In this document: positions 5,044-8,507 of the stretch, piece by piece
Position numbering within the stretch: the stretch's first letter is position 1
Layout of the letters: each line of letters starts with the position of its first letter
Source of the DNA: an uncultured Cytophagales bacterium
Lineage (GTDB): Bacteria; Bacteroidota; Bacteroidia; Cytophagales; Cyclobacteriaceae
DNA length: 32,000 nt
Assembly (NCBI GenBank): GCA_963787095.1
Contig: CAWBCB010000152.1
Location: 5,119 to 37,118, forward strand
Reading direction: 5' to 3'
Made by a program: the position numbers and the translations under genes
The notes under the pieces: generated by a model
What the model was told of the DNA's origin: nothing
What the model saw: the letters and a program-made list of their open reading frames with translations, nothing else
Databases searched by the model: none

Positions 5044-5491
5044 TCATTTCTTACTGATTTGTGTTTCCTTATCAAGGGCAAGTACCGCCAACAACCGACC
5101 TCCAGAAACTACTTTGGAAGTGTAAGTGAGGGTAAATGTTTTGCGATCTGTTTTTTTGAATGCCATAATCTCACTTCCTTGAATGATCATAGCATCCTGA
5201 CCCTTTAGTGTCTGCGAACTTCCATTCCTTTAGCAGATGTCCGGCTTCGTCTTTCAATGACAGTTTTCGATTTGTTCCAACTTTCCCACATTCGTTATAA
5301 AATATAGTCACTACATCGTTGATCGAAGTAGTAGCTAACGAAACGCGGGGTGTAGCAGCCTTCGAGGTAAAGTAATGTTCAATTACCAATTTGTTGTTTA
5401 CGTGCATGGTAAACCCATCGCCACCGATGGGTGCGAATGAAGCCAACATGGCAACCAATGCAATTCCGGAAAGTACCTTGAGTGTTTTCAT
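5044..5491 (-). pseudogene. small secreted protein, apparently frame-disrupted (1 extra nt near 5195-5205)
   Basis: ORF 5171-5491 starts with a signal peptide (MKTLKVLSGIALVAMLASFA). After its stop, a second frame stays open for 50 codons (DAMIIQGSEIMAFKKTDRKTFTLTYTSKVVSGGRLLAVLALDKETQISKK) and ends at 5044, just before the terminator. The total span of 448 nt equals 3n+1. Confidence 0.55.
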
Positions 5492-5677
5492 AAGTTATGC
5501 GTTTAATTTTTTTTGATGTTAATTACGCACAAACACACTACACGTGTTTGAATCTTTGACCAGGTGCAACAAATGCTTGACGAATTGCACGAAGGCGTAA
5601 GAATATTGAGTTGGAATCATGTCATCAATAGATCAATCTTAACGGGTTAGAATAGTTAGAGATTGGGTGAAAATGTT

Positions 5678-5940
5678 GGTCAGGCGACCATAGTCGTTAA
5701 CTTAAGGATAAATTTTTTATAAAAGCCTTTATATGTCGTCCCTACAGGACTTAAATGCACTCGTCTATATTATTTACCAACATGTCGTCCCTAACGGGAC
5801 TCAAGTATAAAGACACCTTCCAGTCCCGAGGGATGAAATATTGGTAATAGACAACAGTACTCTTTTAAAAATCCCTTTAGGGATGAACTATTAATTCCTA
5901 TAAACAGAATGTATCGATCTCTTGTGCCTTCGTGCCTAAA
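5678..5940. repeat. mosaic of TCCC-N-GGGA hairpin modules in both orientations, bounded by inverted arms
   Basis: GGTCAGGCGACCATAGTCGTTAAC (5678-5701) is the inverse of GTTAACGACTATGGTC at 5941. Modules: ATGTCGTCCCTACAGGACT (5733-5751), TTACCAACATGTCGTCCCTAACGGGACT (5775-5801), AGTCCCGAGGGATGAAATATTGGTAA (5822-5847), ATCCCTTTAGGGATGAAC (5871-5888). Confidence 0.85.
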
Positions 5941-6700
5941 GTTAACGACTATGGTCAGGCGACCAGTCGTTACATAAGCATAGACGCGTATGAGAATTCT
6001 ACGTTTGACTTCACACAAACACTTTAGTGAATGTGGAATTTGTATTTCATCCCTATTACCAATATATAGTTCCTAACGATTTTGGAGGGAGACTTTATTT
6101 TAGTCCCATAGGGACGACATGTTGGTAACAATGAGAGCGAGGTGAATTAAAGTCCCATAGGGACGACATATTAATTTTCGCAAAGCATACCTTACGTTAA
6201 CGACTATGGTCAGACGGCCAGTCGTTACAAAAAGTATAGGCGCGTATGAGGATTCTACGTTTGACTTCACACAAACACTTTAGCGAAAGTGGAATTTGTA
6301 TTTCATCCCTATTACCAATATATAGTTCCTAACGATTTTTGGAGGGAGACTTTATTTTAGTCCCATAGGGACGACATGTTGGTAACAATGAGAGCGAGGT
6401 GAATTAAAGTCCCATAGGGACGACATATTAATTTTCGCAAAGCATACCTTACGTTAACGACTATGGTCAGACGGCCAGTCGTTACATAGAGCATAGGCGC
6501 GTATGAGGATTCTACGTTTGACTTCACACAAACACTTTAGTGAAAGTGGAATTTGTATTTCATCCCTATTACCAATATATAGTTCCTAACGACTTTGGAA
6601 GGAGACTTTATTTTAGTCCCATAGGGACGACATGTTGGTAACAATGAGGGCGAGGTGAATTAAAGTCCCATAGGGACGACATATTAATTTTAGCAAAAGC
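5941..6700. repeat. three direct tandem copies of a ~256-bp structured noncoding unit
   Basis: GTTAACGACTATGGTCAG starts at 5941, 6196 and 6453. Each unit has four elements. First, an AACGACT..GGTC-AGRC-GRCC-AGTCGTT hairpin. Second, an ACAAACACTTT-AGYG-AAAGTG-GAA-TTTGT hairpin. Third and fourth, two AGTCCC-ATA-GGGACGACAT hairpins 49 bp apart (e.g. 6103-6115 and 6152-6164). Confidence 0.95.
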
Positions 6701-6849
6701 TTCGTCATAGGCCGGTCAAGACAAAAAAGCACAACGCAAAGTAACCGTGATGAATCTTGCCTGATAAAGTGAGTAGGTTACTTGATGACACTCAACTTTG
6801 ATAATCATTATCTTGAGAGATTCTCAAAAAATAAACTACTTTTAGTTTT

Positions 6850-7413
6850 ATGGAAGGAAAACCACCTAAGAAAAAGAAGAAACCGGGTAGGGGACGAGAG
6901 ACCTTGTTTCGCTCGGCCTATCAAAACCAAAGCAACCTGATTCAAATGGCTGATAATAAAGCGAACATCATTATCAGTATCAACACCATGATCATCTCTT
7001 CCATTATTGCCATTACGGGTTACGGTGCAGTGGCCGGTAAAATAGATACCTATGAGGCAAGTGTAATGGTACCTATTGTAATGATCATTCTTTCCTGCCT
7101 GGTCTCTGTAATTTTTGCCATCCAGGCAGCACGCCCTAAATTAATTCAGGCGAAAGCCGAAGGCGGTGAAATGCAAAAGTCAAGTTTACTTTTTTTTGGT
7201 GTGATATCGCGACACTCCCAACAAGACTATCTGACTAAAATGAAAGACCTGCTAGACTCGGATACCGATTTGTATGAACACATGACTATCGACTTGCACA
7301 ATCAAGGGAAAATTTTGAAACGCAAATACAACTTGCTGGCCTATGCCTATCAGGTATTTATGTTTGGGTTTATCTTTAGTGTGTTGGTGTTTTTAGGGTT
7401 TCTTGCTTTTTAG
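6850..7413 (+). CDS. DUF5706 / PycTM-like (Pycsar-effector-type) membrane protein, stand-alone
   Basis: 187 aa. A Lys-rich N-terminus is followed by ETLFRSAYQNQSNLIQMADNKANIIISINTMIISS and hydrophobic helices (about 45-70, 75-100 and the C-terminal 165-187). It also carries the KRKYNLLAYAYQVFMFGF signature. I recognise this pattern as the membrane module fused to HD domains in Bacteroidota and found as the PycTM effector (Pfam PF18967). Confidence 0.85.
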   Translation: MEGKPPKKKKKPGRGRETLFRSAYQNQSNLIQMADNKANIIISINTMIISSIIAITGYGAVAGKIDTYEASVMVPIVMIILSCLVSVIFAIQAARPKLIQAKAEGGEMQKSSLLFFGVISRHSQQDYLTKMKDLLDSDTDLYEHMTIDLHNQGKILKRKYNLLAYAYQVFMFGFIFSVLVFLGFLAF

Positions 7414-7427
7414 AAACTGGAAACATT

Positions 7428-8507
7428 TCAAAACTGATAAACAACGGCATTGATATTCATACCGGCACCTACCGAAGCAAATACAATTTTTTCGCCTGAA
7501 TGGATAACCTGATTCTTTCATTTGTCTTTTTCAACATCAGATCGAGCAAGGTAGGGATGGTGGCCACAGAACTATTGCCTAACCACGAAATGCTCATGGG
7601 CATAATGCTCGGATTGGTAAATTCCAGATCATATAATTTAAAGAGTCGTTGCACAATGGCTTCGTCCATCTTTTCGTTGGCCTGATGGATAAGGATTTTG
7701 CTGATCTCTGAAAGGTGGGTATTGGCTTTGTCGAGTGCCAGCTTCACTACGTGGGGCACGTAGGTTAAAGCAAACTCATACAACTTACGACCATTCATTT
7801 TTATATAAAGATCACTGCTGCCATGCTGGATGTCGTAGCTGATGATCCATGTTTAGCAAATGCGCATGCTCAAGGGTATGGGTTTGAGTTTTATGAGCCA
7901 GAATTCCTTCGCTTCCTGTCCTTCCTTCTAAAATAACGGCCCCGGCACCATCTGCATAAATCATAGAATCGCGATCGTGTGGATCAATGATGCGCGATAA
8001 TGTTTCCGCGCCAATAATTAAGCAGCGCTTGGCATCTCCCGATTTAATGAAATAGTTTGCCTGGATAACACCTTCCAGCCAACCAGGACAACCAAATGGA
8101 AGATCGTACGCAACACAATCTGGATTTTTTATTTGTAACAAATATTTTATCCGCGAGGCTAATGTGGGCACCATATCCACGCGATTGCTATTATGAGCAA
8201 CATCTCCAAAGTTGTGTGCTACAATTAAATAATCAATAGTTTCTTTGTCTATGCCTGAACTTTCGAATGCTTGTAAAGCAGCCAGATAGCCAAGGTCTGA
8301 TGCTTTTTGTTCGGGTAACGCATAGCACCGATCTTCAATCCCTGTTATGGATTTGAATTTTTCAACAATAGTCTTAACATCCTTAGTAATGGGAGATCCA
8401 TTCTTCTCAAAAAAGGTATGATTAAGAAAATGAGCGTTGTTAATTTTTATTTCTGGGATGTGACAGCCCGAAGCGACAATAACAGATTGAATAGAATGAT
8501 TCTGCAT
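7428..8507 (-). pseudogene. FabH-like 3-oxoacyl-ACP synthase III (KAS III family) with two compensating frame shifts
   Basis: Three frame segments together reconstitute a 360-codon KAS III. The N-terminal part (8507-~7850) has the active-site Cys context DLPFGCPGW. The middle part (~7850-~7520, other frame) has HQANEKM and GNSSVATIP. The C-terminal part (~7517-7428, back in the first frame) reads KNQVIHSGEKIVFASVGAGMNINAVVYQF*. The span of 1080 nt is divisible by 3. Confidence 0.85.

Follow-up and report, generated by a model that had tools for sequence, protein, structure and literature searches.

The closest described relatives of the repeat locus analyzed here are the repetitive extragenic palindromic (REP) sequences of bacteria and the insertion sequences (IS) of the IS200/IS605 family. 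The locus lies in a 32,000-nucleotide stretch of DNA from an uncultured Cytophagales bacterium (GenBank assembly GCA_963787095.1, contig CAWBCB010000152.1, positions 5,119 to 37,118; hereafter the window), where a composite palindromic element, E0, is followed by a tandem array of three hairpin-bearing units of about 256 bp. With a probability of roughly 0.7, we read it as a gene-less cluster, akin to bacterial interspersed mosaic elements (BIMEs) built from REPs or to miniature inverted-repeat transposable elements (MITEs), that derives from hairpins at the ends of Y1 (HUH) transposons and has been amplified locally.

BIMEs such as those of Escherichia coli share with this locus short extragenic hairpins that often stand as inverted pairs forming a longer hairpin (REPINs) and that vary in copy number. 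Members of the IS200/IS605 family encode a small Y1 HUH transposase, about 150 aa long, carry hairpins at each end, and have nonautonomous, end-only copies, of which the gene-less derivatives known as palindrome-associated transposable elements are the example; their ends lie on one strand and are not inverted repeats, whereas the ends formed by the module described below are inverted doublets. In IS608 TnpA and E. coli TnpA-REP, an HUH enzyme recognizes, cuts, and rejoins hairpins on one strand of single-stranded DNA (ssDNA). The pneumococcal BOX elements and the Correia/dRS3 mosaics of Neisseria are dispersed repeats with variable internal tandem modules; like our locus they form intergenic mosaics in which short palindromic modules cluster and repeat number varies, but they have no sequence relationship with it and belong to another host phylum. 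Recognition of ssDNA by HUH enzymes and TnpA-REP also figures in the background of the survey by Quentin et al. (2018, PMC6006769), and Di Nocera et al. (2013, PMC3733652) describe large REP clusters in which dimers, along with the DNA next to them, recur in tandem. Clusters of that construction being already documented, the locus itself is ordinary; it is the module from which it is built that leads further.

The hairpin module and its distribution

The module (for example AGTCCCGTAGGGACGACATATTGGTAGA, hairpin plus tail) consists of a 5-bp hairpin (AG-NN-CC, a loop of 3 to 4 nt, GG-NN-C) followed by a conserved tail, GACATRTT, and often by (G/T)GTAG. Allowing up to three mismatches, its pattern occurs eight times in the 32-kb window, where 0.02 matches are expected, and all eight lie inside the array locus. 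A covariance model built from 78 copies, R1, gave 10 matches in the window, all within 5721 to 6695, and none in the other 31 kb; on a control of 53 kb of unrelated Cytophagales loci it matched nothing except the array's own last module.

A scan of one genome per species (596 Gb) for the exact 22-nt pattern AGTCCC-N3/4-GGGACGACATRTT returned at least 120 loci, against about 17 chance matches calculated, in at least eight phyla. Among the matches listed, the Bacteroidota are represented by Flavobacterium, Ohtaekwangia, Chitinophagaceae, Saprospiraceae, Cytophagales, and Bacteroidales, and other groups by Ignavibacteria, Desulfobacterota, Planctomycetota, Verrucomicrobiota, Acidobacteriota, Calditrichota, Poribacteria, and a few oddly labeled bins; viral contigs gave no match to the pattern. 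The copies share context beyond the search pattern, the GACATRTT tail being followed by (G/T/A)GTAG or ATAG and often by a GC-rich palindrome, and a second module with a different but complementary stem very often lies about 50 nt away; the modules are homologous across phyla. A perfect 5-bp hairpin precedes the tail motif in 42% of cases near the seeds and in 4% elsewhere. R1 found 189 copies, typically clustered, in 100 module-bearing loci; 117 of 126 modules lie outside called open reading frames (ORFs), and their orientation relative to neighboring genes is weakly biased (60 to 41).

Several traits set the module apart from classical REPs. Its stem is only 5 bp, and its conserved single-stranded part is the 3′ tail, GACATRTT and then GTAG or ATAG, rather than a 5′ GTAG at the stem foot (GTAG or ATAG is common in the family but sits 8 to 9 nt 3′ of the stem). 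The modules come as direct doublets with a period of about 50 nt, their sequence is conserved across phyla where classical REPs are species specific, and their density in the window is low. The CGTC-tagged REPs of Di Nocera et al., considered because of the module's reverse strand (ATGTCGTCCC), were set aside, as those REPs have 8- to 9-bp stems starting with AT and a CCA tail. Separately, the module matches at L014, L029, L041, L047, L064, L065, L069, L077, and L080 have more than 100 nt of context in common and often lie at contig ends, in bins labeled Lachnospiraceae, Eggerthellaceae, E. coli, or simply "bacterium"; they read as copies of one dispersed repeat from a single organism, perhaps one of the Bacteroidales, and the labels may reflect contamination.

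Placement around Y1 transposase genes

In a Pfam scan of 144 ORFs next to module seeds, Y1_Tnp was the commonest family (five members; best E value, 1e-30). These proteins are about 150 aa long, carry the motifs DH[VIL]H, WQ, and YIxNQxxHH, and score 64 to 90 bits against the NCBIfam IS200/IS605 model NF033573, which places them in subclass 1.2 of Quentin et al. (2018, PMC6006769). The genes that go with the module are thus of class 1 (IS200-like, Y---Q--HH) and not the class 2 REP-associated tyrosine transposases (RAYTs) that go with REPs; the same survey describes subclass 1.2 as low-copy, not IS-like, and present mainly in Cyanobacteria and Bacteroidetes.

To remove ascertainment bias, we ran the test in reverse on 80 metagenome loci picked solely for encoding a subclass-1.2 Y1 protein, 61 of which match the strict motif regular expression. 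R1 gave 116 matches at E ≤ 0.05, distributed over 46 loci, and their placement is polar: in the 200 nt upstream of the gene, the gene strand carries 39 and the other strand 4, and in the 200 nt downstream, the gene strand carries 6 and the other strand 32. Canonical placement is found in 41 of the 80 loci, on both sides of the gene in 14, so that in these other genomes, as in the REPtrons of RAYTs, a Y1 HUH gene stands between inverted module copies, an arrangement not found in the window. In many phyla, inward-facing doublets of about 50 nt abut the gene at both ends, with the tail of the inner module running into the ATG and the mirror image of this at the stop codon; the outer module tail reads ...ATATTGGTAGA or ...TTTATAGA, and the inner module lies about 50 nt further in. 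The window doublets have the same layout without a gene, the outer module ending in ...GACATGTTGGTAA and, 49 nt on, the inner one in ...GACATATTAATT; in place of the family's common GTAG or ATAG, the window modules carry GGTAA or AATT.

A unit with inward-facing doublets therefore has the end arrangement of a subclass-1.2 element with the gene replaced, and the whole locus is a run of gene-less, end-only elements, head to tail: four in the window and six in the near-identical contig L001. The module, conserved across at least eight phyla, appears to be the terminal repeat of subclass-1.2 Y1 genes, a conclusion drawn from scans of about 200 loci. The link also appears to be undescribed: in the literature consulted we found no paper that makes it, and the only subclass survey found (PMC6006769) records no repeats. 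A first-pass annotation of the window, made from its letters alone, had suggested that the module may belong to a widespread but functionally uncharacterized repeat family. The scan bears out the first half of that description; the second half no longer holds, since the module matches the 3′ hairpin of Rfam family RF01687 (discussed below) and brackets subclass-1.2 Y1 genes.

The stems covary in the seed-based sets and in the independent set ascertained through the protein. The protein-ascertained copies comprise GTCCC/GGGAC (61), ATCCC/GGGAT (17), GTGCC/GGCAC (12) and, more rarely, GCTCC/GGAGC (10), GTTCC/GGAAC (5), and GCCCC/GGGGC (4). On the module-sense strand, G·T and A·C mismatches stand at 18 to 4 near the seeds and at 9 to 6 in the independent set; the G·T excess hints at strand-specific folding and does not separate RNA from ssDNA.

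In L019 (553 to 573), as in other Y1 loci, the 3′ end of the Y1 gene extends into the inner downstream module, whose hairpin encodes the C-terminal ...YAAPTELK. Such overlap accounts for the YQHVVPNGT- and YAAPTEL-type peptides of spurious small ORFs; a YQHVVPNG-type peptide had already been noticed in the window, where TAC CAA CAT GTC GTC CCT AAC GGG ACT (5777 to 5803) reads YQHVVPNGT.

Anatomy of the locus

The features of the locus and its two flanking genes are listed by position, with L001 and L210 denoting related contigs described further below.

5171 to 5491, minus strand: left flanking gene, transcribed away from the array, for a small protein without a Pfam match; shortened by a 1-nt insertion at 5199 (106 aa, against 148 aa in L001)
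5588 to 6788, unstranded: lineage-specific insertion containing E0 and the array; in blastn, the L210 intergenic region aligns to 5587 and resumes at 6789
5677 to 5690, again at 5952 to 5965, 6207 to 6220, and 6464 to 6477: small palindrome TGGTC-AGGC-GACCA, found at the left E0 edge and at every unit junction; direct-repeat family
5686 to 5956, unstranded: E0, composite palindromic element of about 270 bp with 16-nt terminal inverted repeats (TIRs) GACCATAGTCGTTAAC and GTTAACGACTATGGTC, from inverted-repeat detection
5730 to 5750, minus strand: module GTCCT-GTA-GGGAC (GACATATA) with one T·G pair; R1 match 5721 to 5755, 16.5 bits
5779 to 5800, minus strand: module AGTCCC-GTTA-GGGAC (GACATGTT), then GGTAA; R1 match 5769 to 5805, 44.4 bits
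5822 to 5847, plus strand: degenerate module AGTCCCGAGGGATGAAATATTGGTAA; R1 match 5818 to 5852, 15.6 bits; direct-repeat family
5870 to 5896, plus strand: degenerate module AATCCC-TTTA-GGGAT (GAACTATTAATT); R1 match 5866 to 5902, 10.3 bits, E = 1.1; direct-repeat family
5941 to 6195, plus strand: tandem unit 1, 255 bp; corresponds to L001 unit 1 (5 differences from M1)
6196 to 6452, plus strand: tandem unit 2, 257 bp; corresponds to L001 unit 4 (5 differences from M4)
6453 to 6697, plus strand: tandem unit 3, 245 bp, truncated and without the right TIR; corresponds to L001 unit 5 (3 differences from M5)
5941 to 5973, again at 6196 to 6228 and 6453 to 6485, plus strand: junction hairpin H1, consisting of right TIR, 6 to 7 nt, and a left-TIR-like arm (GTTAACGACTATGGT-CAGGCG-ACCAGTCGTTAC); from plus- and minus-strand folds and TIR matches
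6020 to 6035, again at 6276 to 6291 and 6533 to 6548, plus strand: short hairpin CACTTT-AGYG-AAWGTG in the unit-specific segment, read from the sequence
6044 to 6079, again at 6300 to 6335 and 6557 to 6592, minus strand: two degenerate inverted modules, ATTTCATCCCTA and TTACCAATATATAGTTCCTAACGA, from repeat families and the plus-strand fold
6102 to 6172, plus strand: intact doublet of unit 1; outer module AGTCCCATAGGGACGACATGTTGGTAA (6102 to 6128) and inner module AGTCCCATAGGGACGACATATTAATT (6151 to 6177), starts 49 nt apart; R1 45.7 and 40.3 bits
6359 to 6429, plus strand: intact doublet of unit 2; pattern match and R1
6615 to 6685, plus strand: intact doublet of unit 3; pattern match and R1
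6850 to 7413, plus strand: right flanking gene, PycTM/DUF5706 membrane protein (Pfam PF18967, 93 bits), outside the repeat

Tandem Repeats Finder (TRF) reports a single strong array at 5941 to 6697 (period 257, 3.0 copies, 96% matches, score 1400), in agreement with the starts of GTTAACGACTATGGTC at 5941, 6196, and 6453, which are spaced 255 and 257 bp apart. Every unit contains two exact copies of GTCCCATAGGGACGACATRTT at a distance of 49 bp (6103/6152, 6360/6409, and 6616/6665). Read in register from the intact doublet, a unit comprises two plus-strand modules, about 130 bp of other sequence, and two degenerate minus-strand modules; the 130-bp middle is made up of the abutted terminal repeats (H1) and the unit-specific segment with its short hairpin. 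In the plus-strand fold, the degenerate inverted modules of one unit pair with the next intact module to give a REPIN-like long hairpin, and a single unit is moderately structured relative to shuffles (z = −2.9 on the plus strand, −2.4 on the minus strand). Compared pairwise, the units show 10 to 22 differences, some of them 1-nt indels within A/T runs. Such indels may be errors of the assembly, as the neighboring genes of the window also carry 1-nt insertions relative to a 98 to 99% identical contig.

The first-pass annotation had described this architecture well: the three direct units and their spacings, the paired AGTCCC-type copies within each, four modules ahead of the array with two in each orientation, inverted 16-mers bracketing these and able to pair with each other, and units that are similar but not identical, with 1-nt indels, were all recovered. 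It had also singled out the higher-order organization as the unusual part, and this stands for the family: module-containing tandem arrays elsewhere (about 200 other module-bearing loci) have periods of 50 to 95 bp, against about 256 bp here.

The unit lengths break the reading frame and the longest stop-free stretch in 5588 to 6788 is 93 aa (minus strand), so we treat the region as noncoding. Nothing in the window reached Rfam gathering thresholds, and a tRNA/tmRNA search of the window found none. Within the collections searched, the 256-bp unit occurs solely in the window, L001, and the contig L003: its unit-specific 21-mer GACTTCACACAAACACTTTAG had no match in the metagenome collection, and blastn of E0 plus two units had none among plasmids and phages. 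The sequence TACGTTTG at 6000 to 6007 fits the Bacteroidota −7 motif, TAnnTTTG; we rejected it as a promoter, as there is no −33 TTTG and a chance match is expected in about 6% of cases per unit and strand.

E0 and its transposase-bearing counterpart

E0 is bounded by inverted copies of GTTAACGACTATGGTC at 5686 to 5701 and 5941 to 5956, within extended arms (5677 to 5707 and 5935 to 5965) that are 84% complementary over 31 nt, and as ssDNA the region 5670 to 5970 folds into one long hairpin (z = −5.9). Its modules run in the order two minus-strand, then two plus-strand, a junction-type arrangement complementary to that of the units. Among the loci compared, the TIR occurs only in the window, L001/L003, and L042, a contig of Ohtaekwangia sp. 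MAG_016; at least one further module locus from a related Ohtaekwangia genome is among the matches listed. L042 is 95.7% identical to window positions 5687 to 5845 and 94% identical to 5872 to 5955 and has the same 15-nt TIR, at a site unrelated to that in the window and adjoining a pyridoxamine-phosphate oxidase gene. In place of the 26-nt center of E0, L042 carries a cassette of about 660 bp that codes for a protein of 170 aa, which scores 85.9 bits against the NCBIfam REP-associated tyrosine transposase model (cutoff, 80) and whose motifs NHFHLIWQ and YIHANP fit the Bacteroidetes subclass 2.6.

By its sequence, E0 is the gene-less counterpart of this RAYT-carrying element, which shares both E0 ends at 94 to 96% identity and looks like an autonomous partner whose RAYT would be a candidate for mobilizing them; the RAYT cassette may also simply have landed inside a separate E-type shell. 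E0 is flanked by direct repeats, CAGGCG (6 bp) in the window and AACTA (5 bp) in L042, known from these two copies only; they resemble target-site duplications but disagree in length, and the CAGGCG of the window forms part of a larger TGGTCAGGCGACCA palindrome. With its RAYT of about 170 aa inside 15-nt TIRs and its own TTGGTG..CACCAA hairpins, L042 resembles the TIRtrons (TIRYT) of Di Nocera et al. (2013) and the subclass 2.6 RAYTs of Bacteroidetes, which have "atypical secondary structures" (Quentin et al. 2018, PMC6006769); unlike L042, other homologs of its RAYT have neither TIRs nor modules. We rejected this RAYT as the module's general cognate transposase, since its homologs at L126, L128, and L129 have TTGGTG..CACCAA hairpins and no modules, by R1 as well.

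Insertion site and related contigs

In the related contig L210, the PycTM protein is 94% identical and its gene has the same divergent neighbor, but the intergenic region is 182 bp long and holds 24 nt in place of the 1.2-kb insert. Being missing from so close a relative, the insert is a recent, lineage-specific acquisition and not a conserved regulatory feature. L001, whose flanks are 98 to 99% identical to those of the window, has five units instead of three. The closest pairings of window (W) with L001 (M) units are W1-M1, W2-M4, and W3-M5; with the edge units matched, the alleles differ by two internal units, as expected of recombination or slippage between units. Three short-read (Logan) contigs end exactly in the last module of the array.

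The PycTM protein is about 80% identical across many Cytophagales contigs, and the exact protein occurs on several metagenome contigs. Its gene stands alone, with no adjoining cyclase, and it therefore looks like a housekeeping membrane protein rather than a component of Pycsar defense.

Relative to L001, the window has 1-nt insertions at 5199, 7519, 7526, and 7841. FabH, 358 aa in L001, is split by such insertions into ORFs at 7469 to 7798 and 7812 to 8507; the insertions reflect either pseudogenes or assembly indel errors. A second, unrelated repeat-rich intergenic stretch lies at 740 to 2480, with hairpins such as GTGGTTCGTGGGACACGAACCAC and TRF repeats of 198 bp × 2.3 (1209 to 1673), 71 bp × 1.9 (898 to 1031), and 67 bp × 2 (2314 to 2448). 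It includes, at 2462 to 2478, a GTGGTGAAGAACACCAA hairpin like those that flank the subclass-2.6 RAYT genes of L042, L126, L128, and L129.

Relationship to the Acido-Lenti-1 motif

Below threshold, the window matches RF01687 (Acido-Lenti-1) on the strand opposite the module, at 13 to 19 bits (best, 18.8) against a gathering score of 37; the direct window modules reach 13 to 15 bits and cover model positions 24 to 45 only. Permissive-threshold Rfam matches to snR39, rli40, and mir-367 in the window were taken as chance. An alignment of the match in L027 shows the module to be the reverse complement of RF01687 positions ~21 to 46 (CUA-auuUAUgcC-GUgCC-UUC-GGcAC-U), that is, its 3′ hairpin and linker, while the 5′ half of the model corresponds to the GC-rich palindrome that follows GTAG. 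Matches above the gathering score, at 50 to 60 bits and overlapping modules, occur in L026, L027, and L030, and L026 has 16 copies at 40 to 60 bits; RF01687 has no match in 15 of 18 module-bearing loci and in 20 of 20 Y1-ascertained loci. Most Bacteroidota copies, including those of the window, lack the first hairpin (the 5′ GC-rich 8-bp stem) and are thus invisible to the Rfam model.

In L026, from a Pirellulaceae metagenome-assembled genome (MAG), a subclass-1.2-like Y1 gene (1599 to 2186) lies inside two Acido-Lenti-1 arrays with a period of about 70 nt (1015 to 2886), and orientation switches within each array, a REPtron-like picture for a motif filed as a small RNA (sRNA). True matches thus flank a subclass-1.2 gene, as modules do, while Rfam models the opposite strand; Acido-Lenti-1 amounts to a GTAG-type REP joined to the small hairpin and is probably the GTAG-REP-bearing version of this DNA element, seen from its other strand. 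At L196 (987 to 1131), beside a subclass-1.2 Y1 gene, a group II intron (RF02001, 78.8 bits) starts at 1004, in or just after a module match at 987 to 1022. The module hairpin may serve as a group II intron homing site, which would explain why Acido-Lenti-1 is reportedly found near group II introns. Rfam classes RF01687 as gene/sRNA, Weinberg et al. (2010, PMC2864571) rated it "probably RNA," and its function was still called unknown in the literature as late as 2026.

Origin of the array

Under the transposon-end reading, an element would have entered a neutral spot between two divergent promoters and then been amplified head to tail. By analogy with IS608 TnpA and E. coli TnpA-REP, its hairpins would fold on one strand while the DNA is transiently single-stranded, and an HUH enzyme could there bind, cut, and rejoin them, and orphan copies would spread through the action of such enzymes. 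Each unit has an intact doublet facing a degenerate inverted doublet, with about 130 bp of unrelated DNA in the gene's place, and neighboring units are joined by their abutted 15-nt terminal repeats. The 256-bp period would have arisen by duplication followed by unequal recombination or slippage, through which unit number changes and edge units are kept.

Several observations weigh against this account. The sole Y1 gene linked to an E0-type element, that of L042, encodes a subclass-2.6-like RAYT whose homologs come without modules, so the assignment of enzyme to element in this lineage is ambiguous. E0 bears TIRs and short flanking direct repeats, neither of which Y1 (IS200/IS605) transposition is known to produce. 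Unlike REP-rich genomes, the window has a low density of modules, with none in its other 31 kb, and tblastn with subclass-1.2 and L042 RAYT proteins found no Y1 gene in it (none at E < 1). Both unit counts come from assemblies, and short-read contigs break at the array, so the difference between three and five units is possibly in part an assembly effect. Finally, Quentin et al. (2018, PMC6006769) give "REP: no" for subclass 1.2.

The TIRs are the natural starting point for an alternative in which E0 and the units are MITEs of a DDE-type transposon with 15- to 16-nt TIRs and a target-site duplication, the modules are passengers, and the array arose by repeated insertion at the palindromic end or from tandem-dimer intermediates. 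In two unrelated genomic settings, E0 has GTTAACGACTATGGT(C) at its boundaries and direct repeats beside it, AACTA in the case of L042 and CAGGCG in that of the window; it folds into one long hairpin, and each unit junction has the order right TIR, 6 to 7 nt, left TIR, like circle junctions or IS dimers. We nevertheless consider this origin unlikely: the flanking repeats are unequal (5 versus 6 bp), come from two copies, and in the window belong to the TGGTCAGGCGACCA palindrome; no DDE transposase is seen in the window or near the L042 element, whose sole gene is a Y1 RAYT; and the internal doublets match the ends of Y1 genes in spacing and outer/inner structure, which is hard to explain for passenger DNA. 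The edge-unit correspondence between the three- and five-unit alleles also fits recombination better than serial insertion. An RNA function is a lesser prospect still and in our view improbable, whether as tandem Acido-Lenti-1-like sRNAs or as a long 5′ leader of PycTM, acting in trans or on the flanking genes. Both module orientations occur within single clusters, and inverted pairs stand around transposase genes, as befits DNA ends rather than an oriented transcript; the bias relative to neighbors is weak (60 to 41), and a close relative that has these genes does not have the array, whose copy number also varies. The sRNA class and the "probably RNA" rating (PMC2864571) of RF01687 count in favor of RNA; window copies, for their part, score 13 to 19 bits where that family requires 37. 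The covarying stems speak for RNA, as do the co-orientation of all six intact modules with the downstream PycTM gene and the advantage of the unit over shuffles on the plus strand (z = −2.9), but the minus-strand fold is nearly equal (z = −2.4). Likewise, the G·T excess near seeds (18 to 4) fails to recur in the independent set (9 to 6), and DNA hairpins tolerate G·T too.

An assembly artifact is a very unlikely source of the tandem structure or of its copy number. Three Logan contigs do end exactly in the last module, and the window has 1-nt indels relative to L001, inside genes as well; yet the array is present in two independent assemblies whose unit-specific single-nucleotide polymorphisms correspond position by position, and a third contig, L003, reaches into a unit. 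We give almost no credence to a CRISPR-like or degenerate mini-array of 22-nt hairpin repeats about 49 nt apart with fixed spacers. The repeat-spacer-repeat spacing is superficial, as the first-pass annotation had recognized, and although the repeats are hairpins, the 28-nt interval is the same in the three window units, and the spacer does not change from unit to unit in either allele apart from point substitutions (1 to 4 among the five units of L001). A period of 49 nt is short for CRISPR, no Cas family was found in a Pfam scan limited to ten neighboring ORFs, Rfam gave no CRISPR-DR match, and the same modules bracket transposase genes. A bolder variant, which we hold to be quite unlikely, would make the units live substrates, their doublets cut and rejoined in trans by a subclass-1.2 enzyme or by the subclass-2.6 enzyme borne on E elements, and the array a concatemer from ssDNA excision and reintegration or rolling-circle-type copying rather than from RecA-type unequal crossing-over. 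If it were true, the locus would be a natural activity readout for a Y1 subclass described as immobile and without cognate repeats, and the Rfam "Acido-Lenti-1 sRNA" would be recast as a DNA element.

The evidence as a whole favors the transposon-end cluster. According to the first-pass annotation, membership of the unit in a known Rfam or IS-derived element, or an ordinary REP/BIME-like makeup, would argue against anything special here. These criteria make the locus ordinary, in that the module corresponds to the 3′ hairpin of RF01687 and to the terminal repeat of subclass-1.2 Y1 genes and E0 is found with a RAYT elsewhere. With an IS- or REPtron-derived module, no conservation of the locus, and a REP/BIME-like construction, the locus does not pass as extraordinary. 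Most likely the array does nothing for the cell beyond, at most, pushing two flanking promoters apart.

Implications

For the bacterium itself, the locus, a selfish repeat cluster rather than a new system, has little physiological consequence; tracing its module is useful beyond the locus. The module explains spurious small ORFs of the YQHVVPNGT and YAAPTEL types as well as contig breaks in Bacteroidota assemblies, and it can be annotated accordingly. For the family, it points to an apparently undescribed terminal repeat of Y1 subclass 1.2, a 22-nt hairpin plus tail, which, if confirmed, would make direct biochemical tests of these enzymes possible.

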